Shown here: one piece after another, positions 9,301 to 58,701 of the stretch
Numbering within the stretch: position 1 is the first letter of the stretch
Layout: each line of letters starts with the position of its first letter
Source: Balamuthia mandrillaris
Lineage: Eukaryota
Length of the DNA: 64,000 nt
Direction: 5' to 3'
NCBI GenBank assembly: GCA_031835245.2
Contig: JAVKOQ020000063.1
Span: 124,001-188,000, forward strand
The notes under the pieces: generated by a model
The model's input: only the letters and a program-made list of their open reading frames with translations
Database searches by the model: none
Told to the model about the DNA's origin: nothing
Position numbers and translations under genes: made by a program

Positions 9301-12300
9301 GAAGCCGTCTCCAAAGAGGCAACGACCTATCTGAAGAATATCATTCCTCGGTCCCGTTGCCAATTGTACAGAATGAGTTTTATGAATCTCTGTCTTGCCA
9401 ACCTTCAAAATCATTCCTCTGTTCCACAGTCACTCAAACTGTTGCTTTCAATTTTGGGTATTCCTCTCTTTAACTTTCATTATCTCTTTCGTCGTTTCTC
9501 TTTCTCTTTTCCTCTTGCTCTCTTTATGTCACTCGTTGTGCTCGATTCTTACTTTGATGATGTTTTCTTTTGCAATAGAAACGTTTTCTGATGACCCGCG
9601 AATCAATGAAAGAGCGGCAGTCATTATCGACATGGCCGAAGAGCAACACCTTATGGATCGCTTTTTCTCTGATCTACAAATGTACAAAGAAAAGGCCATT
9701 GAAAATGCTGCTCAACAATTCGAAGAACGAGAACGAGCTCAAGATTCAACTCATAATTCTTACTTGTACTTAGTTCCTTCTCTGTTCTCTCATTCTCCCT
9801 TATGCTTTTTGTCTTTCTTATTCCTCTTTTCGCTTCGCATTTAAAAACAAATACAGAGAAGAAGATGATTTGAAGCATGACATCAACAACTTGATCCTGG
9901 TTGGAGTTCAGCCTCACCTCAAACAAGTCGAAATCCGACTCAAGTTCCTCCGTTTCCTTCTGAGTCACTCTCCTCTCTACATCAGCTCCGCTCAACTGGA
10001 CCAACTTTGGGACAACCTTGTAGAACGCGCTCTGACTGAGAAGGAGAGAGACACCGCCTTTCTATGGTTCCAAAGCGTCTGCGGACATGGCTCGATCTTC
10101 TCGTATGATGCTCTTTCGCAGGCTATGAGCAACTTCTTTCTTGGCAAATGTTGTGGCGCGTACATGCGACAAAACTTTGCCACCATCACTCAGGCCGGCT
10201 TTGACTGCTTCGAGCAGTACTTTCGTTATCACAACATGGAACAACGCAAACTTTCTCCTCTGTCTTCGTCGAAAGACTTTGTGGTGAGTGATCTGTTTGG
10301 ATTGTATGGTCTGGATTGCCTTTGGCAGTTGGCGTTGAACGTGCGGGATGAGCGAGTGGCTCAGAGAGCGATTGACTCGCTCTATTCCCTCTACGATATT
10401 GATAAAGTACGGCTGTCTTCTCTATTTTATTTTATTCTCTCTCTTCTATTCTCATTCCTCTCTATTGCTTATATTTTGCTCATATTTCACAAAAAAGTTG
10501 TCACCCGAGTTGCAACAACAAATAGATACCATCCGGGGTAACTTTTTGGACACCATAATGTTGCATTTGGAGGAAGCTAGCAACAAGGATGGAACACAAA
10601 CCTCCACTGAAAATGCTCTCCGCATTCAACGCTGTCTTGAGCTGTTGAGGGTAAGGAGTAAAGCTCTTTTTTTTTTCTGAATGTAAACTCAATGTATTTC
10701 TTTGCAGAATTTCGTTCAAGAATATGAGAATCGTCAAGAGTTGTTGGCTTCTGCTTTAGGTTCATTCTCTTTAGTTTTTTTTTTCTGTGCTTTCATTTTC
10801 TTTTGTCTTTTTTTTCAATTTGAACTTATCGTGTATCAGAATTAGTTTCATCCTCCAATGCAGACCAACAAAACATAACGCTTCAGTTCTATTGGTTCCA
10901 TCAAGGAGTCAGCTTCGACATGAAGTTCACTCCCAAGGAAACGATGGGCGATGTTCGCAAGAAAGTGGCCCATAAGATCCAGAAAGATATTGATTTTTTC
11001 ACTTTGAGAACAGTCCCTTGGGATTACTTTGATGGGGACAATGATAACTTGACGCTGGGCACTGTTGGAATGGCTGATGGAACTACTGTTCATTTAAATT
11101 TGGTTTGTTTGTTTTTGCTTTTTTTGCTTTTCTCTCTCTCTCTTTTCATTTGGTGTTAATTTCTTTGCAAAGTTGGATGGAAGTGATAGTTTAGAGCTAT
11201 TAGAAGAGCACGAGGATACGGCCACCATTGCTGCTTTGCTTGGGTTGCCTGTATGTTATCTTTCTCCTTTTGTTTAAAAACAATCATGTTTTAAACTTCT
11301 CTTTTGACAACAAGCAGGAAGTGAAAAGTTCTTTTATTCCAAGCTACGCCCTTTCCAACAACCAAACCTTTTTCTACCTTCTTTTCAGCCTCCTTAGCCT
11401 TGATTCCAAGATTGCCGAAACGGTTCGTGATTGCTATGTTCTCATTCTATTACGCTTTGTTCTTCTTTCTAATATCTTTGTTATATGTCGTATACAAACA
11501 AACGAAAATAAAGGCGTGGGATCTTATTTGTATGCTTCCCACTAATGCGGCAATGGAGCGCAGCATTCGAACCTTCCACATCACTCCTCAAACCTTAACC
11601 TCTGCTACTTCTTCCTCGTCTTCCTTCCCCTCTGTAATAGCCACAAATGACGACGACGACCTTCTTCCAACGTCTCCTCCTCCTCCTTCACCTTCCGTTT
11701 CTTCTTCCTCCTCTTCTTCTGAAGAATCGTCTTCTTTGCTAGAGTCTCTCCCAGCTCCTATTCCTGACGAAGAAGAGAAACCTGATTGGACTCGTTTGGT
11801 GGATACTCGTTCGACCTTTAGTTTGCTTTACTCTCTTCGTATCATCAAAGGAGTTTTGGGTTTGGACAATTCGACCACCTCTCTTTCTCCTTCTGCTTCT
11901 TCTACCAACAACGCTTCACCTTCATCTGCTCCGTATGTTTCATCTACCATTGAAGAGGAAGAAGAAGCCCGATCCAATTGGGCCGCCGCGTTCATTGAGA
12001 ATGGAGGTCTTGCCCATATCATAGATGCCTTAGTCCATCATGAACGTTTTCAGGGCAGCCTTGCTAAGAGCTGTCTTCTCGCTGTAACTGAAATTATCGA
12101 CTTTATTCTCAGTACGTTTAACTCTTCTGTCTTGCTTTTTGAGGCTAACCCCTTCTTTAAAAAAACAGAGAATGATGTTTTGTCATCGCGGAGAGAAGCG
12201 CTAAGAAAAGTGGTGGACTATTCATCGTTAGTCAAAGGACTTGCAACAGTAGTTTGGCGATCGGCTCGAGACGTTACTTCTCTTTCTTCTTCCTCTGCTT

Positions 12301-12563
12301 CGTCCTCCTCTTCAACCGTAGCAACTATCAACATGGACGTCGCTTTAGTGAAGAACGCGATGAAGATTTTAACAGGAGTTGTTAGTCATCAAATCGGTGG
12401 ATTTGCTGTGGTAAACAGCGATAAACTCAAAAAGCCAAACTTGCTGAAAACATTGTTCCGACTGGAAGGCTTTGAGGAGTTTATTTATTTTGTGGTGTTG
12501 AAATGCTCTGAAGCGGCTATTCGAGAAGAGATGATTGAAGCTCTGGATAGCTTTTATACGTTC

Positions 12564-12606
<43 letters not shown>

Positions 12607-15600
12607 CTCTTTTTTCCTCTTTTGCGTTTTTCTTATTTATTTTTTGAATAACAACAGGATTGGGGGCAAGCGACAGCGACGCTGGTTGCTCGTTTTGATG
12701 TTTACATTTTTGCCAAAGATAGAACCCACTTCTCAAACCTGCAACGAGTACTTTAGTCTCATGTCTGAATTGCTGCGTCATCACAAAGAAGAACCAATAA
12801 CAGAGTGCGAAGCAAAAGAGGAAGAGGAGGAAGAAGCAGAAGCATTCAACAATAACGAACAAACAGCAAAAAAGAAGCAAACGACACTGAACGATCATCA
12901 AGCAGAAGAAAAGCACAAAGAGAAAGAGGAAGAAGAGAAGCGTTTACGCGAAACCCTTTTCACTCTTTCAGATTCCGAGCTGCTGCAAAGTTTCGCTCAG
13001 GCTCTGTTGCTTCTCATCAAGTATCATCCAATCTTGGAGGCTTCGGAGCACGATCCTCCCGACCTCGTCTTGATTGGTCTTTTACATCTCACTGCTGACC
13101 TTTCATGCTTGCTCTCTCCTTCCCTTCGTCAGAGCATCGGTTCCTCTTCTTCAACACACGAAGGTGTTACCTCTGTTGGAAGTGTTGGTTTGATCGAGGA
13201 GATAATTGTTGAATGCCTCTTCAAGATTCCATCTCCACACATCACCGGTTCATCTGATGAACCTACTTTGACTTCGACTTCAACCCTTCCTCCTCCTAAA
13301 TGCAAAACGAAAAACAGTCGAATCGCCGCTTTTCATCTTTTGGAGGAACTTTGCAAAGACTGTCCTAAAAACCAATTGTCGCTGGTCCATTTCATCGCAG
13401 AGACGCACTTAAAGACTTATCAACAACTTCAAAAACAGTCCTCTTCGCCTGTTTCTTCCTCAGCTTCTTCTTCGATATCTCATGATATGGATCTTTCCTG
13501 TAATGCTTCTGGAGAACTTGCTTCCTACAAAAACGAAAACAAGAATGCCGAAGAAAAAGCAGAAGGAAAACGAAGCTTCCTGCATATTTCAGAATGGGGC
13601 TTTTCGCCAACGGCTGGAGAACGTTCAAGCACAGGTTATGTTGGACTCAAGAACTTGGGTTGTATATGTTACATGAACTCGCTCATGCAGCAACTGTTCA
13701 TGATGCCCAACTTTCGTTCTGGTATCCTGTCTGTTAGTGGCACTGAAGGTTTGGTTCTATTCTTTTGTTATCAGCTTTCCCTCCGCGTTTCCTTTTTGCC
13801 TTTTACTCCTTTCTCTCTACTCTCTCTCTCTCTCTCTCTCTCTCATTAATGAAAATGCAACAAAAATATAGAAATGATGAAAAAACGAGAAGAAAGACAA
13901 TTGATCAACGCTAGCAAAGAAAAAAACAAGAAGAACAAGAAGGACAAAGAGAACGACATTGACGAGTTCTCGGAGAAAGAAGAAGAACCAAGCGAGGAAG
14001 AACTGCTGTTAGAGCTCCAAGAAATGTTTGCCTACCTCCAAGAAAGCATCAAGCAGTATTACTCTCCGAAACGGTTTTGCATGGTCTACAAAGATTATGA
14101 TGGACGTCCCATAGATGTAAGCGTTCAAATGGATGCTGATGAGTTCTTCAATATGCTTTGCGATAAGCTGGACAACCACTTAAAAGGCTCTCATCAGGTA
14201 ACATTTTTGTTATTGTTTTTTTTTAAATGGTTGTTGTTGACTAACTCGTTTTATAACGAAAAGGAAAAACTGTTGCATAATATTTGGTGTGGTAAAATGA
14301 CTTCGCAGTTGATTTGCAAAGGGTGCCCTCATCGCAGCGAAAGAGACGAGCCATTCTACACCATAAGTCTCGATATCAAAGGAAAGAAAGACATTTTGGA
14401 AGCGCTGCAGCTTTATGTTCGTGGAGATATGTTGGAAGGGGACAACGCTTACTTTTGCGAGCTCTGTGGAAAGCACGTTGATACACTGAAGCGCTCCTGC
14501 ATCAAAGTATCCTTCTTTTTGCGATATATTCCTTTTGCTTTTCTCTAACTTATTGTTTTTCTAATACGGCCGAAATAGACCCTACCCAATACACTCATTC
14601 TCCATCTCAAACGGTTCGAGTTCGATTTTGACACCATGGTCAAAATGAAGCTGAACCAACACTGCGAGTTTCCTTTCAAGTTGAACATGCTGCCGTACAC
14701 CAGGGAAGGATTAGCTGCAGCCGAAGAAGAGGAAGAACAAAAAAGGAGGACAAGACAACAGCAACAACAAAAGAAAATAGGAAAGAGAGAAGATGGAGAT
14801 GACGAGGATGATGACTCTTGCGTCTCTGTGGCAAGCAATAACAGCAGCGAAGCAGAGAGTAACAACAGCAGTAACAACAACGACGACAAGGACGGGGAGA
14901 GCTCTTCTTCATTGCCGCCACTCACTCATGAATTACCTCCTCTGCGCCCTCATGAATATTACGAATATGAACTAGTTGGCATCCTTGTGCATCGAGGCGT
15001 TGCTGACAGTGGCCATTATTATTCCTTCATAAAGGTATATCTTATTCTCGCTTCTTCTTTATTTTTATTGTTTTCATTTTGAATAACGAACAGCATTACT
15101 TCAAACAACAGGAACGAACTGGAGATTCTACAGCAAGATGGCTTGAGTTCAACGACAGAACGGTGCGGCCATTTGACATCAACCGATTGGAAGAGGAATG
15201 CTTTGGTGGGTACGAGGTAATCCCTCAATACGATGAGTTTACAAAGGTGCGTGTACAAAGACAAGTAGAGAACTCGAGAAGCGCCTATATGCTCTTTTAT
15301 GAGAGAATAGTACCTCAAGCTGTTAGTAGCGATGAGGAAGAGATGGTGGATAAAGCGGTTAGCAAACAAGAAGAATCTATTCAAGTTCATGTTCCGGCTG
15401 CGGGTTCTCCTCGTTCCACACCATCGAACGCTGTTCTTGTGCAACCTGACCTCTCGATTTCCAAAGGTTGATATTCTTTTCTTGTTGTTTTTATTTCATT
15501 TCTTTTTGTTGCTTGTTGCTCATTTTCGATTAAGGTTTACTGGCAGGAGTGTCGTTAGCTTCGCGACTATTTTCTGAAAGTGGCGGTTCGTCATCCACAG

Positions 15601-17764
15601 CTTCGTCACGCTGTGAAAGCAGCGGACAAAAGCGAAGTTTAGTTCCAGTTCCCCCGTTCCTATATAACGCTATTTGGCATCAAAATGTACAGTTCCTGCA
15701 ACAGAAGCGAATGTTTGAGGATTGTTACTTCCAGTTTGTATCCAACCTCATTCAACCTTGCACTCAATTGCATTTTGGTACAATCGCCTCTTCTCTCCCG
15801 TCTCTTCATTCTTGTCTCCTCTTCCACGCTTTCTCCTTTTTTTGTCGCTTCTCTTCTCTTCTCGTTCTCTTTGTTAACTTAAACCCTTTGTGCAATAGAC
15901 TATCATGAAAGGATGGACATCTCCACTCAGAAAGCAGTCGAAATGGGTTTCTTCTTCTTCCTCGAAATCATCTCTCACTCTCGCGAAAAAGACCGCATCA
16001 ACCACTTCTCCGAACAACTACGAAAGATACTTAAGGCGAATGTAGCAGCTTGTCGTTGGTGGGTTGGTCTCTTGGTGGATAAACCAGAATGGCTTAGAGA
16101 GATGTTGTTGGACTGCTCGTCGGAGGATGCTCGTCAAAACTTTGCAGAGCTCATTCATTATGCGCTCAAATATCTGTTGAAAGCAGGAGAGAGAGACTAT
16201 CTTCAGGTATTCCTGGCAGAAGGTGAAGAACGAGAAGAAGCAGGAGGAGAGACGATGCTTAAAGAAGGACAGATTGTGCGGCTGTGCATTGATAGAGTGT
16301 TGGAGTTAGACCGTTATGCAGTATTGAAGTGGCGCAACTTTGGTCAATACTTTACTCTCTTCTTCCACTTTGCATTGTTGGGCCCAACGGAGGTAATGCT
16401 TTTTTTTGTTGTCTTTCTTTTGATTGTTTCTTCTCACTAACTGTGTCTTTGTTCAACATATTAGATGGCGTATCTTCTCCGTCGCAATGTTATCTCCCGT
16501 TTCCTTGACATTTATTTAGGTCCTGACTCACCTAATGCTCGCGTACGTTCTCTGTTTTCACCCCTTTCTCTGCTTCGCTCATTCTCTTGCTTGTTCCCTC
16601 TCTTTGCTTCCTTCTCCCTTCCCTCTTGTCTCTTCTCTCTTCTTTCTACACTATTTTTCTAATGTTATCAAACAGAGACGACTTTACATGCGGTTTGGGG
16701 ATAAGTGGCAACAACCCGATTTCTCTTCTCTCATTTCTCTGGTTTGTCTTCTTCTTCGCTCCTGCCACATTGAACGAGATCAACACGAAGAAGTACGACA
16801 AATTTGCGATGCCGACGACGACACAACAGAAGAAGTCGTTCATTCTTCTCCTGTTTCTTCTCTTCGCGATTCTGGTGAAGCGGTATTTCCTTCTGACGAT
16901 GATGATGATGACGAAATTGACATCAAAGGAGGAGAGTTAATACCGCCAACTTCTCCTCAAACTGCTTCGTTTGTATACAACGCCAAACCACAGCAAGAAC
17001 AACTGGAGAAAGAAAAAGAGAAAGAAAAAGAGAACGAAACCGAAACCAAAGAAGATGAGCAATTACCTCAGCAACAACATAACGAACCCGAAGAAGAGAC
17101 AGAACGCAGAATTATCATTCTATCACGACCGTCTCCAACACAAGCAGAAGGCCCTCTCTTCACGCTCTCCGAGCAAGACAGCGAGATGGTGTTCAACGAG
17201 GCGTTCCTCTTGCGTCTCGTGAGCGATCCTCAAGCGATTTCAGACGCCTCTTTGCTTCTCTCTCATTTGTGTTGGGAGAATTTGAGCCTGAGTGACCTCA
17301 GCTTGCACGTTCTAATCATGGCAATCCAGAAGGCAAATTACGAGGGCCTTTCGGCGCTCCACAAAATCTTGCTGACGGTTCTCAACCTCGAAGACTTTTA
17401 TGCTGAACTGAGGGTACGAACCATTTTGCCTCGTCTCTTGGACTTATTCGAGGACAAGAAGAAGTTCCCCAAGAGCACCGAGATCAACCTTCGCTTCCTC
17501 ATTCACAAGCTCTACGAACGCAACGCCGTGGCTCAGCGCTACATGGACGACTTGGCGGCTGGAAGAAGAACGGCGGTGGCAGAGGAAGACGAAGAAGATC
17601 ACCATCAGCAACAACCAAGAAGTTTGGAGTGGATCACCGCCTGGCTGTCCAAGCACACGCACAACATAAACGTGCCGGGATGGATACGGCATGCTCCTGA
17701 TTATGACCCCAGCATGGAAATCAGTCTTAGCGGCTATGGCAAGCATTACTCTTGGTACTCTTAA
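6220..17764 (+). CDS. Large ubiquitin-specific protease, USP9X/USP24/USP34 (Fat facets-like) family, many exons
   Basis: Cys box GYVGLKNLGCICYMNSLMQQLF (~13635), QMDADEFF, finger CxxC pairs, His box YELVGILVHRGVADSGHYYSFIK (~14970), WLEFND and SAYMLFYER. Long helical N-terminus (SSSLERRLNGL) and a ubiquitin-like insert (~10920). Confidence 0.92.
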
Positions 17765-17991
17765 ACCATTATAAATTCTGTCTCTTTTTTTTTTTTTCTT
17801 TTTCGTTCGTTTTCTCTCCTTATTCTAGTATAGTCATTTTCGTTGCTTGCTCCGACTCGGAAATATAAAACACGTCTTTTCGTTAACGAAACAAACAATT
17901 CGCAAGTTTGGAAAAGCTCTTTTTTTTCACCCTTACCGTTGCTGTGCACAAGAAGCCCACCACCTAAGTTAGAGAGAGGAAAGAGCAGACC

Positions 17992-19476
17992 ATGCGGTGC
18001 CTCTCCCTCTTGCTTCTGGTCCTGGTTCTGGCCCCCTCTTTGGCCGTGGCACAACTCACCCCGGAATTGAGGGAGGTTATGTTGGAGGAACACAACTGCG
18101 CAAGACGAAACAAAGGAGTTCCTGAACTGGTTTGGGACAACGGCTTGGCCAAAAGCGCGCAAGGTCAGTTGTGTCGCCTTCTATCTCCTTTGCCGTGTGG
18201 TTCTTACGAAATAGAAACAAAGACTGGGCCAACAGATGCACCACGGACCACTCCGGAATGGGAGAGAACCTGAGTTTCGCTTGCTGTAGTGTTAAAAACC
18301 CTCCCCAGTTCCTGAAGAGTGCCGTGAAGGGGTGGCTGGATGAGGGTAAATACTGGAACTGCAGAGATGACACGTGCTCCCCGGAAGAGGGATCCAGGTG
18401 TCTTCATTTCACGCAAGCCATGTGGGAAGAGTAAGCGTCTCAACTTCGGTTTACATCTGTTTGTTTGCTGTTCTTTGACTCTTGCTGCAACAGCACGACC
18501 AAGGTCGGGTGTGGGTGGAAGTCAGGGTGTTCCGGCAAGTGGAGCGATGTTGTCGTCTGCCAGTACAGCCCTGCTGGGAATTGGGTCAGAGAGAGACCTT
18601 TTCCAGGTAACCCGCTCCTTGCATTCGTCCTCCTATCGCATAGACCACTTACCCATCATAAAACCAAACAGCCGAGAAGTGCTCGAACAATTTCGGATGT
18701 GCTGGTGGAGGAGGAGGAGATGGCACTGCCGATGGAACAGTGGATGGCGAAGGTGATGGAGGAGACGGAACAGTGGATGGAGATGGAGATGGGGATGGCA
18801 CTGCCGATGGAACAGTGGATGGAGAAGGTGATGGAGGAGACGGAACTGAGGATGGAGATGGAGATGGGGGTGGGGATGGCGCTGCTGATGGGGAAGGTGA
18901 TGGAGGAGGAGAATCCAAAAGCTCGGACGGGGGTTCAGTGCTCTCTCTCTCTCTCTCTCTCTCTCTCGCGCTCTCTGTTTGGTACTGACAAAGGAAAGTA
19001 CAGGTAAAATAGCAGGCGCGGTAGTTGGAACCATCGGTGGTGTGTCACTACTCGGGTTAGGCGCCGGATTAGCCATCTTCTTCCACATGCGAAGACAGAA
19101 GCAAACCATGCGAAAGGGTTTGTCTGCAGACCTTCCGAAGTCCACCCTCCCAGCCACTTCATCCTTAGCTCCGGCCGCAGTTGCAATCTCCCCACGTTCG
19201 ACGGTTCCTTCTTCACCACCGTCCATGGCCCCTGCCCCTGTTTCCAAAGCGGCTGCTCCTCCACCTCCTCTTAGAATGGGACAAGGGCCTGGTTCCTCGT
19301 CAAGTGCCCAAGCCAGACCTCCACTATCACCAAGAAGCCCACCGCCACCTCCACAACGACCCGGTGTAACAACAACCTCAGCAACCATAACCCCTCCTGC
19401 AGGACAAGGAATCCCCCCAGCAAGACCAAAGCCATATCTGCCTCCCCCACCCGCACGCGGAGGAGCTCGCGGCTGA
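17992..19476 (+). CDS. CAP/SCP (PR-1-like) domain type I membrane protein with G/D-rich stalk and Pro-rich cytosolic tail
   Basis: Signal peptide; HNCAR…LVWD…LA…AQDWA, GENL, HFTQAMW…VGCG, VVCQYSPAGN; TM IAGAVVGTIGGVSLLGLGAGLAIFF; poly-Pro tail. Confidence 0.9.
18716..18910 (+). repeat. Coding tandem repeat, ~75-nt period (GDGTADGTVDGEGDGG…)
   Basis: gatggcactgccgatggaacagtggatgg recurs 75 nt apart. Confidence 0.85.
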
Positions 19477-21578: not shown

Positions 21579-22812
21579 ATGAAGTATATCTTGCTCGCGG
21601 TGGTTGTGTTGGGAGCGGTGTTGGTGGAGGGGTTACTCACGAGTGAGGAACAGGAAGCGATTCTGAAGGGTCACAATTGCGCACGGCGGGATAAAGGCGT
21701 GCCTGATCTTGTATGGGACGCATCGCTGGCCCTTAGCGCACAAGGTCTGTTTTTAACCTCCGTATTTCCAAACCAGCTGACACTTTGATTTTTGTATGGT
21801 TCTGGACTACAAACCAGAATGGGCGGACCAGTGCATATACAATCATTCTTCTGCTTTGGAGAACAACATCGGAGAAAATTTGTACCTCATCTACACCAAC
21901 ATTCCTTGGTCGAGCACGAAACAACTTCTGCAAGAAGCTGTGCAAAGTTGGTTAGAGGAAGAAGAGTATTGGAATTGTGAGGAAAACAAATGCCAAGAAG
22001 ACACTGAACTCTTCGACTGTGTTCCATACACCACAGTGATGTGGCATAAGTAAGTATTGTCGTTTCTTTTTTCCTTTATTGTTGTTCCGCTTCGTCATTA
22101 TTTTCTGAGCTAACGTTTCGTTCTTGTCTTTCCTTATGGTTCCTTTCTTTCTTTAGAACGACTCAGGTCGGATGCGGGTACAAACAACAGTGTCCTGATT
22201 ATGTGGGTGACGTTGTGGTATGTCACTACAACCCACCAGCAACACACGCAACATCAGACCGTCCTTTCCTTGGTGAGAAACCCAATGCCGTTCTGGCATC
22301 TTTTTGTTTGTCTTTAAACACTAACTCAACCAACCAAAAATCAGTCGATAACTGTTCATTAAAGTTGGGATGTGATAATGCAGCGGCTCCCACTGAAATT
22401 GGAGATGACAGTGACAATGGGGATGACGGTGACGACGGGGTTGACGGTGACGATGGAGATGACGGTGGCGATGGGGTTGGTGGTGACGATGGAGTTGGCA
22501 GTGATGATAGCGAAGATAGTGAAGACAATGATGAAGAAACCAAAGAAGAGAGCTCTGACTCTGGTTTAAGTACAATTCTTTCTTTCCTTCTTTTCTTGCT
22601 ATTCATTCGTGCTATTAAAACCGCAAACCGCACACAAAACAGGTGGAGGAGCCATAGCCGGAGCAGTGATTGGCTCTCTAGGCGGCGTCGCGCTGATCGG
22701 CGGGGCCGTCGCCTTGGCCATGTGGAGAACCAAGTATGCCAAGAAGCAACACGTGAGGAGGGAGATGATAGTGGACATTTCTATTCCTCCCAACCTGCAC
22801 GATCAACTATAA
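21579..22812 (+). CDS. Second CAP/SCP-domain type I membrane protein (tandem paralogue)
   Basis: Signal peptide; HNCARRDKGVPDLVWD, GENL, VGCG, VVCHYNP; D/G-rich stalk; TM AIAGAVIGSLGGVALIGGAVALAMW. Intron positions match the 17992 gene. Confidence 0.88.
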
Positions 22813-29596: not shown

Positions 29597-30968
29597 TTAA
29601 GGCATGAGGAAGCGTATTCTTTCAAAGACGTCAGCAGAGCCGCGATACTCAATCAAGGCTTGAAGGTCCTTTGGCCTGTAACGCATCAACATCTTGTCCT
29701 CCTCGATACTCCACGGCTTCAACTCTGAAAAGTGGTTTGTTTTAAAGACAAAAGATGAACAAAATGTCCAAAACGAACTTAAAAACGCGTTTACCTTCAA
29801 CAATACATGTAATTCGGGACTCACTGTCGGGCTCTGTATCGAAGAGGGTGAGATACTTCCTCGCTTTGCCAACATCCCCACTAAACACCCACAAGGCGTG
29901 AATGACAAGCTTCTCGGAGCATCCGGTCGTGTTTTGCAGCTTGTGAATGTTGAGTCTCGCCACCGATTGTTGCATGCTCTTTCTGCGAATGTTCTCCAAC
30001 CTCTCTGTCTGGAGTTGCTCCTCTTTCTGAAGCCTTCTCATTTGTCGGCTCGTTTTTGTTGGCGTCTTTGGTTTGATTGGCCGTGCTTGTTCTTCTTCTG
30101 CTTCATCCTCCTCGTCTTCTTTTTCTCGTTGTTTTTCTGGTTCACGCGTTGCCAATTCTTCCATTTCTTGTTGACGTTGCCGTTTTCTTACTTCATAAAT
30201 TTCTAACTCCTGTTCTGGTTCGGCAACTTCTTGTTGCATTGCTTCTACTTCTTTCTCTTTCTCTTTCTCTTTCTCTTTTTCTGGCTCTTTTGTCGTAGCG
30301 GCTTCTGATTGTTGCTTATCTCTTCGCTTTCGTTTAGCAATTCTCTTCTTTTGAGGAGGCTGTTGCTTTTGTGCCGTCGTTTTCTTCGCCTGCTTCCTCT
30401 TCTTCCCCTGAACTTCTTCTTCATCCTCTTCGTCTTCCTCTCCGCCTTCCTCTTCGTCTTCTGAAGCCACACTACCCCTCTCCAACACTTCTTCCACTTG
30501 ACTCATCAAGACTTGTGTCTCTTCATCCGTTCCCTCTTCCTCTTCTCCATTTCTCTCTCCGTCTTCCTCTCCTTCTTCCTCTGACTCTGATGGTTCTCCC
30601 CTTTCTCTTCTTTCTTTCCTTCGTTGTTTTCTTGCTGTTTCCTGTTCTTCTTTGTACTCTCTCAATCTTCGCAGTAAGTCTGGCTTATTTCCATTCGTAT
30701 GTAATCCTCTATCCTTCAATGCCGCTCTCAATTGGATCAACGTCATTCCAGTGAATTCATCTTCGGGTAGAGAATAAGGCATGGAAGAACGACGTTTGCT
30801 GGAAACATTGTTAGGAGAAGCAAATGGAGAGCTAGGATAATCAAGTTGTAAACGAGGATAAAGTTTTCGTCGCCAGTGGTTTCTCATGGACACTGGTGTG
30901 TGTCGTGGGCACAACTGTTCCAAAAAAAATTAATAATGAACGGAGAAAGAGAAAGCGAGAGAAAGGCC

Positions 30969-31020
<52 letters not shown>

Positions 31021-32139
31021 CCCATCGCGAGACATATTACGCCAGAGAATGTTGCCAGTAGGAGTAAAATTCTCGCCATGCTTTTCGACATAGCGAATCA
31101 TGATCTCTTCCTCTTCAGGAAGAAAGATATTACGACTTTTGAGCAAAGAAGGATTGAATATGTGAGAATGTGCTGATTATAATGTTAATGAGGGAGAAAA
31201 CCTACTCTGGAATGGACTGCGGTTTGTTACGAGGGATGAGATAGTCCGAAATGGCCTTTAATTGATGATTTGTTATTTTTGTTTGAAAAAGAAGAAGAGC
31301 AAAAAGAAACAAGCAGAAGAAGAAGAAGAAGAAGAAGAAGAAGAAGAAGAAGAAGAAGAAGAAGAAGAAGAAGAAGAAGAAGAAGAAGAAGAAGAAGAAG
31401 AAGAACAAGAAGAAGAAGAAGAAGAAGAACAAGAAGAAGAACAAGAAGAAGAACAAGAACAAGAAGAACAAGAAGAACAAGAAGAAGAAGAACAAGAAGA
31501 AGAAGAACAAGAAGAAGAACAAGAACAAGAAGAAGAACAAGAAGAAGAAAGTTTCGTACCAATCTTCTCTTGGCTTTCACGCAATCCACCACAAACTTGG
31601 CCGAGTACGCGTTCCCAATGGTGGGTGCCGGCAATCTGCCTTCCGTCGGCGGCAACAGGTAGTACACCCTTTGAGGGGCGTTCTCTTCCTCCTCCACATT
31701 TTCGTGCTCCTCCTGTTCTTCCTCTTCTTCTTCTCCTTTGTTGTTGCCCTTTTCCCTGCGGCGACGCGCTCTCTCCTCCACTGACTTGACCAGCGGGTCT
31801 TCCTCCTTCACCATCGGCGGCGTGTCGCTCAGCGCTCCTCCGTATTTCTAATCATTGTTGAGGGAGAAAAAAAAAGTTGGTTGAGAGAGAAAAAAAGCCT
31901 TTGGAACAAGATGGGAGGGAGTAAGGGTTTAAACCTCGATCAGTCGCACGATGGCACTCCTCCCCAACATCGGCGGCACAAAAAACAGCATCGGCTCGTC
32001 GTACCAATCCGCGAACAATTTGGGCAGCGTTTGATTTCTGCGCAGTCTCCTCAGCCTTCGTTTCGTGGGAGGGCGAGCCATGGCTTGCCATTCATCTTCT
32101 TCTTCATCGTGATCATAGTTCACTTCTTCCTCCTCTTCC

Positions 32140-32171
<32 letters not shown>

Positions 32172-32333
32172 TTCACCACCCTCGGACAGCTCCCACCACT
32201 GCTTTTCTTTCTCCTTGTTGAGCTCCTCCTCCTCCAGGAAGGGCAGCTGGGACTTGCGCCTGCCGCGTCGGGTCTTTCTTGCCCCTCCTCCACCCGTGGA
32301 ATAACGGGTCTTTCGTTTTCTAGGTCTTGGCAT
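29597..32333 (-). CDS. TERF2IP: Telomeric Rap1/TERF2IP orthologue (BRCT-Myb-SAP-RCT)
   Basis: BRCT (FFVPP…VRLIEKYGG…YSAKFVVDCV); Rap1-type Myb (RNIFLPEEEEIMIRYV…TGNILWRNM…RHTPVSMRNHWRRKL); SAP motif; RCT (VIHALWVFSGDVGKARKYL…PWSIEEDKML…RGSADVFERIRFL*). Confidence 0.85.
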
Positions 32334-33061
32334 ATTTCGTGTGCTGGCTCCTGCCCTCCCTCTCGCCCTAACCTTGGATCCCTTTTGGCTTCTTTCTTCT
32401 TTCTTCTTTTTCAGGAAGAAATTATTTGTCGACTATCAACGGCTACTTTTGAACCGTTAGATATTTCAGGACGTCATGATAACCATTTTATGGAAAAAAG
32501 GAATAAAAAATATTCTCATGACGTCCCGAAATAAGAAATGGTTTTTTTCTTCAAAGCCAACCAGGGTTCCAAAGGAACGGCATTCCAATGGCAGGTAAAC
32601 GGCTCACTAGCAAGAGCTCGCCCATCTCCATGATACCATGGCATGGGAGGCCGCGCCCACTGTTACGTAACAAGAACCGGAGAGGCGGGAGTGTTGAACA
32701 TGACTAGACAATAATATAACGAAAAAAAAAAGAGAGATATCGTTATGATGAACATTCAAAAATCCCAAAGGGGTTTCGGTTCTTTATTCTTTTCTATTTT
32801 GTCAGGAATATAAAGCAAAGTCTTCAAAAAAAATATATAAAAGTCTTTAAAAAAAATGTAATGCTGCTGCACAGAAACTCTAAAAACAAAAACCAAAAAA
32901 AAAAGTGTTTTTTTTGGGTTACAAAAACTCTAAAGCAGCAAAACAAAGTCTAAAACGAAAAAAAAGCATCTGAACAAAAAAGAAACCAAAAATAAAAAAA
33001 ACCTTTGTGGATGAAACCTTTTGGGCAACGTGCAAAACTGAGGTCAGAGAACAGAGTGTGC

Positions 33062-35167
33062 TCAGAAGAAGAGAGCACGAAGTGCAGCAGCAGAGGAGGT
33101 GTCTCCGGTGTTGTATTGGATGTCGCCACCGTCGCCGTAGGCCTCGCCGTCATAGGCAACATCACCGCCACCGTAGGTCACAACGTCCTCGCCGTCGTAC
33201 ATGACGTCGCCGCCATCATAGGTCACAACGTCCTCACCGTCATAAGTGACGTCTCCGCCATCATAGGTCACAACGTCCTCGCCATCGTACATGACGTCCC
33301 CGCCGTCGTAGGTCACAACGTCTTCGCCATCGTAGGCAATGTCACCGCCATCGTAGGTCACATCTCCTCCGTCGTACATGACGTCTCCGCCATCATAGGT
33401 CACAACATCCTCGCCATCGTAGGCAATGTCACCTCCATCGTAGGTCACATCCCCTCCGTCGTACATGACATCACCGCCGTCGTAAGTGACAACATCTTCG
33501 CCATCATAAGTGACGTCTCCGCCATCATAGGTCACAACGTCCTCGCCATCGTAGGCAATGTCACCTCCATCGTAGGTCACATCCCCTCCGTCGTACATGA
33601 CATCACCGCCGTCGTAAGTGACAACATCTTCGCCATCATAAGTGACGTCGCCACCATCATAGGTCACAACATCCTCTCCGTCGTAGGAGATATCGCCGCC
33701 ATCGTAGGTCACAACGTCACCGCCATCGTACATGACGTCTCCACCGTCGTAGGTCACAACGTCTTCACCGTCATAAGTGACGTCTCCGCCATCATAGGTC
33801 ACAACGTCCTCTCCGTCATAAGCAATGTCACCGCCATCGTAGACAACGTCGCCGCCATCGTAAGAAACGTCGCCACCGTCGTAGGTCACAACGTCCTCGC
33901 CGTCATACATGACGTCTCCGCCATCGTAGGTCACAACGTCTTCTCCGTCGTAGGAGATATCGCCGCCATCATAGGTCACAACGTCCTCGCCATCGTACAT
34001 GACGTCTCCGCCGTCGTAGGTCACAACGTCCTCGCCATCGTAGGCAATGTCACCGCCATCGTAGGTCACATCTCCTCCGTCGTACATGACGTCTCCGCCG
34101 TCGTAAGTCACAACGTCTTCGCCATCATAAGTGACGTCGCCGCCATCATAGGTCACAACGTCCTCTCCATCGTAGGCAATATCACCGCCATCGTAGGTCA
34201 CATCTCCTCCGTCGTACATGACATCACCGCCGTCATAAGTTACGTCGCCACCGTCGTAAGAAACGTCGCCACCGTCGTAGGTCACAACGTCCTCGCCGTC
34301 ATAAGTGACGTCGCCACCATCGTAGGTCACAACGTCCTCGCCATCGTAAGAGATATCACCGCCGTCGTAAGTCACAACGTCACCGCCATCATAGGAAACG
34401 TCGCCGCCATCATAGGTCACAACGTCCTCTCCGTCATACATAACATCTCCGCCATCATAGGTCACAACATCCTCTCCATCGTAAGTGATGTCGCCGCCAT
34501 CGTAGGTCACAACGTCCTCGCCGTCGTAGGAGATATCGCCACCGTCATAGGTCACGACGTCCTCGCCATCGTAGGCAATGTCACCTCCATCATAGGTCAC
34601 AACGTCTTCTCCGTCATACATGACGTCCCCGCCGTCGTAGGTCACAACGTCCTCGCCATCGTAGGAGATGTCGCCGCCATCGTAGGTCACGTCTCCTCCG
34701 TCATACATGACGTCTCCGCCGTCGTAGGTCACAACGTCTTCGCCATCGTAGGAGATGTCGCCACCGTCATAGGTCACAACGTCTTCTCCGTCATACATGA
34801 CGTCCCCGCCGTCGTAAGTCACAACGTCCTCGCCATCGTAGGAGATATCGCCTCCATCGTAGGTCACGTCTCCTCCGTCATACATGACGTCGCCACCGTC
34901 GTAGGTCACAACGTCTTCGCCGTAGGTAACATCACCCCCGTCGTAGGTCACAACGTCCTCGCCGTAGGTAACATCACCCCCGTCGTAAGTCACAACGTCT
35001 TCGCCGTCATACATGACGTCTCCGCCATCGTAAGTCACATCCTCGCCGTCGTAGGTCACGTCACCGGCGCCGTACTGCACGTCCATGCCCCGCTTGTTGC
35101 GAAGGGGCCTGGCGAGAGCGGCAGTAGCCAGCAAGGCCATGATGACCAAAGTCAAAAGTAACTTCAT
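33062..35167 (-). CDS. Intronless secreted acidic Tyr/Asp/Gly tandem-repeat protein
   Basis: 701-aa ORF: signal peptide MKLLLTLVIMALLATAALA, RPLRNKR, then roughly 90 units of YDGGD[VI]x / YDGEDVVT with synonymous variation. Confidence 0.92.
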   Translation of the reverse strand: MKLLLTLVIMALLATAALARPLRNKRGMDVQYGAGDVTYDGEDVTYDGGDVMYDGEDVVTYDGGDVTYGEDVVTYDGGDVTYGEDVVTYDGGDVMYDGGDVTYDGGDISYDGEDVVTYDGGDVMYDGEDVVTYDGGDISYDGEDVVTYDGGDVMYDGGDVTYDGGDISYDGEDVVTYDGGDVMYDGEDVVTYDGGDIAYDGEDVVTYDGGDISYDGEDVVTYDGGDITYDGEDVVTYDGGDVMYDGEDVVTYDGGDVSYDGGDVVTYDGGDISYDGEDVVTYDGGDVTYDGEDVVTYDGGDVSYDGGDVTYDGGDVMYDGGDVTYDGGDIAYDGEDVVTYDGGDVTYDGEDVVTYDGGDVMYDGGDVTYDGGDIAYDGEDVVTYDGGDVMYDGEDVVTYDGGDISYDGEDVVTYDGGDVMYDGEDVVTYDGGDVSYDGGDVVYDGGDIAYDGEDVVTYDGGDVTYDGEDVVTYDGGDVMYDGGDVVTYDGGDISYDGEDVVTYDGGDVTYDGEDVVTYDGGDVMYDGGDVTYDGGDIAYDGEDVVTYDGGDVTYDGEDVVTYDGGDVMYDGGDVTYDGGDIAYDGEDVVTYDGGDVMYDGGDVTYDGGDIAYDGEDVVTYDGGDVMYDGEDVVTYDGGDVTYDGEDVVTYDGGDVMYDGEDVVTYGGGDVAYDGEAYGDGGDIQYNTGDTSSAAALRALFF

Positions 35168-35281
35168 TTGCTAAGAAGCGAACCGAGCGCTGTTCCTCTT
35201 GTGGTTTGTTTGTTGGTTTGTTTGTTTGTGAAGAGGATGATGAGATGAGGAAAAGCATGAAGGGGCACCAGCGGGGGCATG

Positions 35282-35288
35282 TTATATA
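35282..35288 (-). promoter_or_regulatory. TATA box of the repeat-protein gene
   Basis: TATATAA on the minus strand ~115 nt upstream of the ATG, in a GC-richer context, followed by a CA-rich leader. Confidence 0.55.
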
Positions 35289-36044
35289 GTTGACTATGGT
35301 GGAGGTTGTGGGTCGTGAAATCCACGCCGAATGGTAACGGATCGGTTATCTCGAAGAAGCCAAAAAGGGGAGTGTTGACGTGGCGTGTGCCCATTGGCAC
35401 GGAGTTGAGTGAACTGGCTTCTGATTGGAGGAGGGAGGAAGATCGCCGTCATGAATGAGGCCAGGAGAAGGCGGCTTTCTTAGTTGCCTCCAGGGATTTC
35501 GTTGCTGCTCCACTTTGGTATTGCCCGCCAATGGTGTGGTAGGAGGTGGGAGGAGAGCTGCTTTCGGCGTCTTTTCAGCGGTTTATCGGCCTGTTTGGCT
35601 TTCATTCTTCGTCGCTGACCCATCTCGCTTTGCCATTTTTGTGTCTTGCAGATGTTTGTACTGCAACGCATCCTCTCTCGTCGATTTCATCCTGTTTTCT
35701 TGCTCTCCGTCTGCTGTTTTTCCACACTCTTTCTGTATTCCTCACCTCTCTATCCTCCTTTCTGTTTTGCTCTTCTCTTCTTTTCCTCTCCCCTCTCCCC
35801 TCTCCCCTCTCCTCTCCCCTCTCCACTCTCCCCTCTCTCCTCTCCTCTCTCCTCTCCCTTAAGCTCTCCTCATTCTCGTATCTGCCCTTCCCATCCAGTA
35901 AGTGTTGAAGACCCATACCACCTCGTGTCCTTTTTTTTTACAAGTGTTGTTATTGCTTCACAAAAACCAAAAAATAAAATGGAGGTACTGTCCATAAATA
36001 TAGGCTTGTTGGCGAACTACACACAAAGCTCACAAGGTACACCC

Positions 36045-36329
36045 TCACTCGACCACCAACTTCCTGGACCCATACATGTGACTGATGGTGGCCTGCCGCT
36101 CCACCACTTGGAGGTCCTGCCTGGCCCGGAAGACCAGCTGCTCCAGCTGCTTGGGGTCCGTGACGGCTCGGTTCTCCTCGAAGCCCTCTCTCGCTCGGCG
36201 CTTGGTGTACTCCCTGAAATTGTAGTTGGAGAACTTGGTGGCGTTCCTCAGGAACTGCTTGTAGAGGCTCAGCACGTTGAGCCTTTGCGAGGCCGCAGCG
36301 GCCGTCAGCGTGGAGCTTGTTGCAGACAT
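36045..36329 (-). CDS. LYRM4: LYR-motif protein 4 / ISD11 (Fe-S cluster assembly, NFS1 partner)
   Basis: VLSLYKQFLRNATKFSNYNFREYTKRRAREGF…LQVVERQATISHMY…KLVVE is the ISD11 signature. Intronless. Confidence 0.95.
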   Translation of the reverse strand: MSATSSTLTAAAASQRLNVLSLYKQFLRNATKFSNYNFREYTKRRAREGFEENRAVTDPKQLEQLVFRARQDLQVVERQATISHMYGSRKLVVE

Positions 36330-36652
36330 AGTCGTGTTCCCTTTTCTTCCTTCTTTTTGTTGTGTTGTCGACATAAATAGGATGTGGTTACGTCATATCA
36401 CGTTTCCCATGTCGACATCGACAAGTTGATTACGTCATAAATTATGTCGACTTCATGATGTCATACAGCAACAGATCTTCAGATCAGTAGATCATTTGCT
36501 CCTTGGATACAGAGCTCAAAAAGTTCAGCAGCTGTGCACCTTCGAGTTTATTTGTCGACAAATAAAATTCAGCAAATGTTTTCGTTCAAACGACAAAACG
36601 AACGTAAAGTAAGTAAAGTAAAACAACAACAAAGGCCAGCGGTGGTGGTGCG

Positions 36653-47420: not shown

Positions 47421-47462
47421 AAAAAGAAGTAAAAAAATTAAAAAATTTCAATTTTTTTATTA

Positions 47463-47805
47463 TTTTTGATTGGTCCGCAAAAAATCGAATCTGTGAGATG
47501 AATAATGAATCTATTAGGTGGATTGAATGTTACCATAGCAACCTTATGTTTTTGGCCGATCAAAAATAAATCGCAACAAATTCAACCAAATTTCCGATAG
47601 AAAAACCTAAAATGAGGAAAATATCGAAAGAATATTTTTGTGATTTGTCCGCAAAAAACCGAAGCTATGAGATCTGTGATGAATCTATTAGGCGGAGAGA
47701 ATGTTACCATAGCAACCTTTTGTTTCGCCGATCAAAAATAAATCGCAACAAATTCAACCAAATTTCCGATAGAAAAACCTAAAATGAGGAAAATATCGAA
47801 AGAAA
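47463..47805. repeat. ~172-bp intergenic tandem duplication, each copy with an X-box
   Basis: gtccgcaaaaaa…gaatgttaccatagcaacct…aatatcgaaagaa occurs twice; GTTACCATAGCAAC at 47529-47542 and 47703-47716. Confidence 0.9.
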
Positions 47806-56118: not shown

Positions 56119-56973
56119 ATGGAAGCAAGCAGAGGCAAGCAGGCCTACAGCGGGGCAGGCATCCTGCCCTTTGCCTTCAAAGACGGCGAGGCATGGTTCC
56201 TCCTCCACAAGAAGCGTGCGGGCAAGAAGGTGGGCTACCTTGTCGACTTTGGAGGCGCGCACGACAAGGAAGGAGACGCAGCCCTCTTGCATGCTTATGC
56301 GTCCTCCTTCACCAGCAAGGCCTCCTCCTCTCTCTTGTTGGAGGAAAGTTTATGCACCGCCGTGCGAGAGTTTTGCGAAGAGACGGCTGGACTGCTTGGA
56401 CCCCAACACCGAGAAGAAGGAGAAGGAGAAGCTGCAACAGCCGTTCGAGTTACCACCAACGAAGAAGCACAAAAGGGAGAACGAACGCAAAGAGCTATAG
56501 CGGCGATGCTGCACGAATTCTCCACAAATCGTCACCACATCCTTGTCGACAATAATTATGCTCCTGACATTCAGCACAACATCTCCTCGTTTTCTGCTGT
56601 GCCACACACAGTCGACACAAATTTTCCTTCAGCTCTTCAACACAATTACTCCTCCAATTGTCCTCAGCCAACCGATGTCGACACGAATTCTTCCCCCAGC
56701 AACGCTGCGCTGGAGACAGCGAAGAAGCTGTGGCGAATGGAAGGAATGCAGAGGGGATACGTGCTTTACGTGACGGAAATAGAACCTTTCGTCGAAGCGG
56801 AGGAGTTGAACAAAAGGTTTGGCGAGTGCTGTGTGGATAGACAGTGCGAGTTTTTGTGGGTGCCGTTGCGGGACCTGTTGGACAACAAGACGGAGCAACC
56901 TTTGTTCCCTCGCGTGGCGTTTTATGAAAAGAAGTTGAAGCAAGTATTGCTGGAGATATACGAGCTGCAATAG
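56119..56973 (+). CDS. Intronless Nudix hydrolase
   Basis: GAGILPF…WFLL…DFGG…TAVREFCEET Nudix box with an inserted loop; C-terminal CEFLWVPL. Confidence 0.82.
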   Translation: MEASRGKQAYSGAGILPFAFKDGEAWFLLHKKRAGKKVGYLVDFGGAHDKEGDAALLHAYASSFTSKASSSLLLEESLCTAVREFCEETAGLLGPQHREEGEGEAATAVRVTTNEEAQKGERTQRAIAAMLHEFSTNRHHILVDNNYAPDIQHNISSFSAVPHTVDTNFPSALQHNYSSNCPQPTDVDTNSSPSNAALETAKKLWRMEGMQRGYVLYVTEIEPFVEAEELNKRFGECCVDRQCEFLWVPLRDLLDNKTEQPLFPRVAFYEKKLKQVLLEIYELQ

Positions 56974-57227: not shown

Positions 57228-58701
57228 ATGGGGGTTAAAAGCCTCCTCTGCGTCTTCTTTCTCTTCCTTCTAACCGCTTCCTTTTCGCTCTCCAAGAAGC
57301 CAAGCGCTTCTTCCTCCTCCTCCCCCGCCTCCGAACTCGTCTCACTCGCTTGCAGCGACCTGCGACAGCATCTAGCCTCGTCCAACTCTCTGGGCTCCGT
57401 CCCTCTTACGGAACGCCTTTCCCTCAACACCTCCACTCTCGGTCTGGCCTTCTCCCCCTCCTCTTCCAACCTTCCAAAAGTGGGCGTGCTCTTGCGATCC
57501 AATTCCTCTTCCCTCTTTATGCGTCTAAAGCTGGAATGGATCGCGGAGTTGAACATGAACTTTTCGCAGTGGAACCTTCTTCCTCTTGACCTGCAAGAGG
57601 CACAACTGCTCAGCAAAATGGGGGAGGGCCAGGCCGTGTCTTCAGAGTGGAGCCGGGCTGAGGGGGTGCAAACTCCGAACGGCTTCCCTATGTTCGCTCG
57701 CATAGAAAATAGAGTTCTGTTCGAGAATGCGGCCAACCTGACCGTCACTTGGGATGCTTACGAGGAGCCTGAAAGGTTTTTGGTTCTCGGAGAGGAGGCG
57801 ACGCTCTCGCCTGGCGGGTTGAAGTTCACGACGAAGGTCGAGGGATGGAATTGGCAGTACATGGATTCGCTTTTGGTGATGAGGCTTGAAGTGACACATG
57901 GAGTTTCCTCGTATTCTCTTGTATTTGACAATAGTTACTTTCTCCTCCTCCCCTTCTCTGCTCTCTTCGAGCTGCCCCGCCCTTTTTTCACCCAGCCTGA
58001 CTTGCTTTACTTTCCTCGGGAACAGGAACAGGATTATTGGCTCAGGTAAATATAGCAGGCCAAGGGGAATTAGACTTTCTTCACCGCCACTGTTCTGACG
58101 GAGAGGCTAAGGTGATCTCTGGGTCAATCGTCAAACTTGCCAGCACAGCAGGCGTTTTATACGTTGACTTAGCCTTTCCTCGTTTTTCAGATTCTCTCAT
58201 GTAAGTTCACCTTTGTCACCTGATTATGCAATCGCCTTTTGTTGTTATTCTTGATGTTACCTTTGTTTTATGTTCTTCTTCTTGTTCTTCCCGTTCTCGT
58301 TCTCGTGCTTGTTCTTTCATGTTCTTGTTCTTGTGCTTCTTCTTCTTCTTCTTGTTCTTCTGCTGTTTTTTTGTTGGCCAGTATCTTACTATCAACCCTC
58401 CATCAAAAGATACGATCCAGACCTTGGAATAGTATTTGACTTTGGTGGGGATGGTGACGGTGACGGCGAAGATGGCGAGGATGGCTACACGGATGGCTAT
58501 ACCGATGGAGAAGACGGTGATGATGGAACGAATGACAGAGAGGACAAGGATGGAGAGGACGACGTCCTACCTTTGGCTCTTGGCCTCATTTTCGGTTTGC
58601 TCTTTGGGGTGGTCTTGTTGTTGGGCGGAGTGGTGTCGTTCTTGTGGTATAGGAGGTGGACTTCGAAACGAATAAACCACCAAAATGTTGTGACCTTTTG
58701 A
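57228..58701 (+). CDS. Type I membrane protein, amoebozoan beta-sandwich-like ectodomain, D/G-rich stalk
   Basis: Signal peptide; LKFTTKVEGWNW…LAFPRF…YDPDLGI motifs; acidic stalk; TM LALGLIFGLLFGVVLLLGGVVSFLW; short basic tail. Confidence 0.75.

Follow-up and report, generated by a model that had tools for sequence, protein, structure and literature searches.

It is known that the walls of coccidian parasites are built from subtilisin-processed, tyrosine-rich proproteins that are joined by dityrosine, such as GAM56 and GAM82 of Eimeria, EtSWP1, and TyRP1 of Toxoplasma (accessible portions of PMC7389338 and PMC10729351). The known wall proteins of Acanthamoeba, as far as the available sections of PMC6541295 and PMC11423589 describe them, are cellulose-binding lectins, and its outer cyst wall contains abundant laccase. 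The cyst of Balamuthia has three layers (PMC8579774, PMC4326988, in part), and its walls are reported to contain glucose and mannose polymers (PMC4326988, in part). Unlike Acanthamoeba cysts, Balamuthia cysts did not excyst in the presence of cellulase, pepsin or collagenase (PMC9511172, in part). Our literature search brought up no structural protein by name for the three-layered wall of the Balamuthia cyst. Here we describe a gene of the brain-infecting amoeba Balamuthia mandrillaris for an acidic, tyrosine-rich repeat protein, and compare it with these systems.

Gene, repeat array and relatives

The window analysed is a stretch of 64,000 nt from contig JAVKOQ020000063.1. The ORF predicted at positions 33062–35167 holds and lies on the minus strand, the strand having been left unspecified in the original prediction; its 2106 nt encode a protein of 701 amino acids (P0001) followed by a TGA stop. 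The intronless reading of the gene is based on this unbroken 701-codon frame. The gene had been described as TATA-containing, and a TATATAA box was found at 35281–35287 (minus strand), 120 nt 5′ of the ATG, as a candidate element by sequence. A candidate CCAAT and a candidate CRE-like CACGTCA were also seen by eye at 35376–35397 (minus strand), about 90–110 nt 5′ of the TATA box.

The N-terminus carries a hydrophobic predicted signal peptide (aa 1–19; 35111–35167, minus strand; mean hydropathy of aa 3–18, 2.69), with the cut after A-L-A placed by eye. It is followed by a basic pro-segment, RPLRNKR (35090–35110, minus strand), ending in a furin/kexin-type R-x-K-R site (R-N-K-R at aa 23–26), at which cleavage would be expected; five residues lie between this segment and the first Tyr unit. 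These features, and a paralog of the same layout (P0007, see below), support the predicted secreted pro-protein. The array itself (33116–35074, minus strand) consists of 89 Tyr-started units of 5–8 aa (YDGGD[VI]x, YDGEDVVT) and spans 653 aa with 206 acidic and no basic residues. The tail YNTGDTSSAAALRALFF (17 aa; 33062–33115 including the stop, minus strand) closes the chain. Counting this tail, 90 units start with Tyr (56 heptads, 32 octads, a single unit of 5 aa and the tail), and 83 of them contain YDG[G/E]D, in agreement with the roughly 90 repeats first estimated. The proposed alternation of 7- and 8-residue units is strict across units 19–37 but is broken elsewhere by runs of 7-mers.

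The repeat region (aa 32–684) contains no C, F, H, K, L, N, P, R or W, so that Lys, Arg and Cys are all missing from the repeats, as had been noted. Lys and Arg occur in P0001 only at positions 2, 20, 23, 25, 26 and 697 (none in aa 27–696), and Cys is absent from all 701 residues. The predicted mature chain is 13.3% Tyr, 22% Gly, 31% Asp+Glu and 18% Val+Ile, with 208 acidic residues against one basic residue and a net charge of −0.31 per residue. Third codon positions vary while the peptide is kept, the 29 YDGEDVVT units being written in 18 DNA versions. The 132-nt duplication is real as well: an exact 110-nt repeat (copies at 33408–33517 and 33540–33649) lies at 132-nt (44-aa) spacing within 33408–33649 (minus strand). 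This repeat shows a recent expansion of the array, for which TRF also reported periods of 45 and 132.

A homologue search, as proposed in the original prediction, gave among shorter proteins two NCBI entries, the hypothetical B. mandrillaris proteins QOT17_019997 (KAL6050137.1; P0007) and QOT17_015032 (KAL6058172.1; P0008). They are the only convincing relatives found, both uncharacterised, and no convincing match to a characterised family emerged. YDGGDV units are common to all three proteins, with local identities to P0001 of 63% (QOT17_019997) and 74% (QOT17_015032), and each paralog has five YDG[G/E]D units against 83 in P0001. P0007 shares the opening of P0001, namely a signal-like segment, a dibasic site (RR↓G, aligned with the pro-segment of P0001) and the first repeats, and has a different C-terminus. 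P0008 shares the other end, namely the last repeats and YNTGDTSSAA, the first ten residues of the tail. Of the tail, P0008, which ends in SIGPFRF, keeps the polar part and not the short hydrophobic end (SAAALRALFF) pointed out earlier. As annotated, P0008 has no signal peptide, and the 5′ end of its gene model may be wrong.

Broader searches gave no further convincing relatives. A full-length homologue search, in which (as among the shorter proteins) just the best-sharing candidates were scored, returned four matches among 7991 candidates, all Gly/Thr-rich, compositional and without the motif. A phmmer search against 1.84 billion representatives gave 183 hits, 150 of them listed. Among 158 proteins (these 150 and earlier matches), YDG[G/E]D occurred only in P0001, P0007, P0008, P0055 and P0009. 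P0055 is an unnamed protein of 452 aa with eight copies in its tail, which ends in DYDGGDV heptads; P0009 has two copies, and neither has a signal-like N-terminus. These two and the other Tyr-periodic phmmer matches are apparently convergent. A DNA pattern for three linked units had no match in metagenome, viral and prokaryote collections, and a shorter pattern had three single matches there, none in an array; these collections hold few eukaryotes, so the scans lend weak support to lineage restriction. Literature searches returned only unrelated papers for YDGGD (judged by title and the start of the abstract) and nothing for QOT17. From these sequence comparisons, P0001 and its paralogs apparently form a small, undescribed, lineage-restricted Balamuthia family. 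The exact P0001 was absent from a collection of 15 billion proteins in which one of two neighbouring proteins tested was present; therefore, the annotation probably lacks this copy or gives it another gene model.

Putative role in the cyst wall

The reading we favour, at a little short of an even chance, is that P0001 is a secreted, likely furin-trimmed polyanionic building block of the cyst wall or matrix, condensed by cations and probably hardened through oxidative cross-links between its tyrosines. Judging from its motifs, P0001 would enter the secretory path and lose its 7-residue basic pro-segment to a furin/kexin-type protease. Given its charge, the extended chain would depend on Ca2+, on a low pH or on binding to a basic partner in order to compact, possibly into a 15-residue beta-coil that aligns tyrosines in rows. 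By analogy with other walls, it would be released during encystment, and a copper oxidase or peroxidase would then make dityrosine or DOPA cross-links. Several features are consistent with such a role. The mature chain combines its high Tyr, Gly and acidic content with the lack of any Cys, catalytic or known domain; strong selection holds Tyr as the first residue of each of the 90 units; and QOT17_019997 has retained the signal, the dibasic site and the opening repeats, as QOT17_015032 has the tail. For the invariant Tyr every 7–8 residues, a part in cross-linking or stacking is the best explanation. By analogy, the coccidian Tyr-rich precursors, the laccase of the outer Acanthamoeba cyst wall and the resistance of Balamuthia cysts to cellulase, pepsin and collagenase speak for this reading as well, as do the structurally defective cysts that form under a Cu/Fe chelator.

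Other observations weigh against this role. Scanned against Pfam, 84 window ORFs (picked by hand, mostly from 157 left after filtering by length and complexity, and covering exons of 110 aa or more and a minority of alternative frames) included no oxidase, peroxidase or subtilase. The lectin nature of the known Acanthamoeba wall proteins and the glucose and mannose polymers reported from Balamuthia walls also speak against it. Heavy negative charge would also oppose contact between tyrosines unless counter-ions are present. As for the Cu/Fe chelator that gave structurally defective Balamuthia cysts, the part of the preprint available (bioRxiv 10.1101/2025.02.25.640156) explains this effect by mitochondrial and DNA damage and makes no mention there of laccase, peroxidase or the cyst wall. 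A literature search on cyst wall, tyrosine-rich and dityrosine gave no amoeba-wall paper by title among the papers listed, and term searches within PMC8569187, PMC10471605 and PMC6418277 (including one supplement file each for the first two) found nothing relevant in the text covered.

P0001 shares with the coccidian precursors a Tyr-rich proprotein layout and an organism with a walled resistant stage (PMC7389338, PMC10729351, in part). As in these precursors, a subtilisin-type site is predicted at the motif level, given 13.3% Tyr, a hydrophobic N-terminus and R-N-K-R at 23–26. However, P0001 has one N-terminal site, whereas the coccidian proteins, in the same portions of text, are fragmented into pieces of 8–31 kDa. 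P0001 is also strictly periodic and 31% acidic, without Lys or Cys in its mature repeats, and its place in a wall and its dityrosine are proposed only by analogy. Among the best-sharing candidates scored in the homology searches, none was a named match to GAM56/82, SWP1 or TyRP1. On our best reading, which we hold with slightly less than even confidence and by analogy, P0001 would work like the coccidian Tyr-rich wall precursors and differ from them by its polyanionic, strictly periodic chain and its single cut.

The Acanthamoeba proteins Jonah, Luke, Leo and laccase-1, from a related amoeba, are secreted, as predicted for P0001, and like it are multigene, with tandem units and aromatic arrays (PMC6541295, PMC11423589, in part). 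However, P0001, with no Cys, lacks the 8-Cys disulfide-knot domains of Leo, and it has neither a lectin domain in Pfam nor Ser/Thr spacers, its chain being a 7/8-residue microrepeat. No CBM49-like jelly-roll or choice-of-anchor beta-helix domain, as in Luke and Jonah, was matched by Pfam at E up to 10, and no non-repeat stretch of P0001 is long enough to hold one. At the same cut-off, Pfam gave only three compositional-looking hits in P0001 (DUF3954, PAAR and DUF6799).

Predicted fold and competing explanations

The structure of the repeats was predicted with AF2. From the single sequence the model had a pLDDT of 41.0, and with an alignment of P0001's own repeats, 43.6; regular strands, two short ones every 15 residues, appear in the second model only. 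In comparisons with known structures, repeat proteins commonly give Z values below about 13; there, this model was closest to the ryegrass ice-binding protein (3ult; Z 11.0, rmsd 8.7, 111 aligned) and also matched a Ca2+-dependent antifreeze protein (3p4g; Z 9.6, rmsd 3.6, 142 aligned). The Atlas model of P0007 (pLDDT 0.51) was nearest to bactofilin-like models (TM about 0.4). An ESM Atlas search by features gave a best score of 0.76 for P0001 and nothing usable for P0007, and a PDB sequence search gave two matches at E of about 0.5, one of them to a tail fibre that is trimeric and repeats every 15 residues, which we regard as a lead only. A 15-residue beta-coil is thus hinted at by low-confidence models. 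The original prediction of a beta-solenoid or Ca2+-binding protein fares unevenly: the models, at pLDDT 41–44, lean towards it, but neither the RTX motif GGxGxD nor DxDxDG occurs in P0001, whose period is 7/8 residues rather than that of the nonapeptide. Two-sided beta-rolls (3ult, 3p4g and RTX domains) resemble P0001 in having Gly every 7–8 residues, short strands and, in the model, a 15-residue coil; in P0001, however, the nonapeptide is lacking, Tyr and Asp dominate, and model confidence is too low for a match.

Such a fold opens a possible but rather unlikely alternative, in which P0001 would be a Ca-folded beta-roll rod of about 43 coils of 15 residues and form, without covalent links, a coat, fibril or adhesive on the surface of trophozoites or cysts, its Tyr rows binding cellulose, chains or surfaces and not being cross-linked. 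Besides the strands of the second model and its likeness to beta-helices and beta-rolls, it is consistent with the linear aromatic arrays that bind cellulose in Acanthamoeba wall lectins (PMC6541295, in part), and with the hair-like projections borne by Balamuthia trophozoites (bioRxiv 10.1101/2025.02.25.640156). Against it stand the low confidence of all the models, Z below about 13 and TM below 0.5, the missing RTX and DxDxDG motifs, and the runs of 7-mers, which disrupt a 15-residue register. The boldest form of our favoured reading joins this fold to cross-linking: a furin-released, Ca-folded polyanionic beta-roll whose Tyr ladders a copper oxidase would stitch together to give the cyst wall a protein layer. 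P0001 would then be the first known example of a novel type of wall material in protists. We consider this combination improbable; if true, it would explain both the cysts that ignore cellulase and proteases and the wall defects under Cu/Fe chelation.

Two other repeat families were compared by motif. Ice-nucleation proteins have octapeptide repeats of the GYGS type, and Rhs/teneurin YD repeats read YDxxG; neither motif matched anywhere in P0001, and Pfam gave no match to the YD repeats either. P0001 thus lacks the defining features of the RTX, ice-nucleation, YD-repeat, Luke/Leo/Jonah and Kex2-multicore groups, for each of which they were looked for.

The excess of acidic residues over the single basic one, the dibasic pro-site and the lack of a confident fold would also suit a disordered, granin-like matrix protein housed in secretory granules, where it would pack cations (Ca, Cu, Fe) or basic cargo until its release as a gel. 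We consider this improbable too, since the invariant Tyr and the beta-branched Val/Ile (18%) held in fixed register exceed the needs of a charge sponge.

It had also been proposed that the tyrosines are sulfated and that P0001 is a multicore peptide precursor. Around sulfated tyrosines, at least three of the residues up to five positions away are typically acidic. Three to four such residues surround 88 of the 90 Tyr of P0001, which agrees with the rule, but none of the 90 has an acid at −1, and the term tyrosylprotein sulfotransferase was not found in the papers listed. The precursor reading, in which P0001 would yield many 7–8 residue (sulfo)tyrosine peptides acting as signals or effectors, draws on the same acidic surroundings, the signal peptide, the one dibasic site and the near-identical short cores. 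We regard it as very unlikely: no basic site lies between units, where Kex2-processed repeat proteins and dikaritin precursors have dibasic sites between their core repeats, and P0001 has neither a DY motif nor an acid at −1, nor does a spacer mark unit ends. The 84 ORFs scanned, which cover exons of 110 aa or more and a minority of alternative frames, do not include a peptide-tailoring enzyme (DUF3328, tyrosinase or BURP). The original multicore proposal is therefore not upheld, and nothing among the ORFs scanned around the gene points to a biosynthetic cluster.

The tail of P0001, with the small residues S-S-A-A before a hydrophobic end, recalls a GPI signal, and trypanosome procyclins offer a comparison case for GPI-anchored coats of acidic repeats. 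The C-terminal hydrophobic part of a GPI signal is roughly 11 or more residues long after a spacer, but the hydrophobic end of P0001 has only 9 residues, including an Arg, and P0008 keeps the polar part and loses the hydrophobic one. We consider a procyclin-like coat very unlikely.

Selection, expression and genomic setting

Between units, pN/pS was 0.126 for the 52 7-mers and 0.02 for the 31 8-mers, the unit pairs not being independent. Contigs from run X1, which is RNA by guess only, agree with the first repeats and the rare YG-type unit among them except at four sites, each a third position and each silent (codon changes read by eye). The low pN/pS and the silent-only differences indicate that the protein sequence of P0001 is under purifying selection. 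A 716-codon ORF on the plus strand (33011–35161) was considered as a gene and rejected as an antisense shadow, since pN exceeds pS in that frame. It is open because the sense frame uses a single codon that gives an antisense stop (TTA/CTA/TCA); it stayed open in 163 of 1000 trials of uniform synonymous recoding, and its protein was not found in the protein collection.

In all three raw RNA runs searched, of each of which 3–5% was sampled, with the stage unrecorded and no positive-control gene, no reads fell on the unique signal-coding 5′ region. This uncontrolled absence is not evidence of silence and would fit stage-limited expression. In run X15, 18 partly fitting reads encode GSGDVTYDG and VSYDGGDVSYDG, which correspond to a paralog close to QOT17_019997; therefore, the family is transcribed. 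That the copy is silent or in decay, or that its frame arose by chance in satellite DNA, is hardly credible: the missing 5′ reads and the absence of the exact protein from a collection that holds a neighbour's could be read in this way, but pN/pS of 0.02–0.13, 701 codons without stop or frameshift, the silent-only X1 differences and the intact signal and TATA box argue against it. Parts of the window were contained in 13 of 17 sequencing-run rows from 10 studies, in small shares that are no evidence of range or habitat; of these 13, X1 alone was used for the comparison of contigs above.

The gene is flanked by a Rap1-like gene with a SAP domain and a LYR-family gene. The former (about 29600–32333, minus strand) is intron-split and has a weak Rap1_C match (E 4e-4, below the curated cut-off); it may be a homologue of telomeric Rap1 that carries a SAP domain in addition. 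The latter (36048–36332, minus strand), the upstream neighbour, is small and presumably ISD11/LYRM4-like. A large multi-exon ubiquitin hydrolase of the USP9/24/34 type lies at about 8000–17800 (plus strand), and the Pfam scan of the 84 ORFs found ubiquitin hydrolase, F-box/WD40, C2, kinase, SAM and Ras domains. An ORF of 284 aa at 56119–56973 (plus strand) is present letter for letter in NCBI and has no Pfam match, with Nudix-like features seen by eye. A 172-bp unit occurs in two copies, 90% alike and apparently intergenic, at 47458–47804. Other Asp/Gly-rich stretches of the window, all on the plus strand, lie at 18700–18910 (GDGTADGTVDGEGDG), 22400–22520 (GDDGDD) and 58430–58540 (GDGEDGYTDG), the last directly preceding a hydrophobic segment; these three may be acidic stalks of surface proteins.

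The Balamuthia cyst is the stage that resists drugs and disinfection, and the P0001 family provides a candidate for a wall protein that is testable in existing encystment RNA-seq. Automatic annotation appears to have missed the P0001 copy, and standard tryptic proteomics would largely miss its mature chain, because there is no trypsin site before residue 697. The apparently lineage-restricted, 83-fold repeat is a candidate diagnostic antigen. If P0001 is cross-linked, the tyrosine tanning of walls would extend to Amoebozoa, and wall oxidases would be suggested as drug targets.
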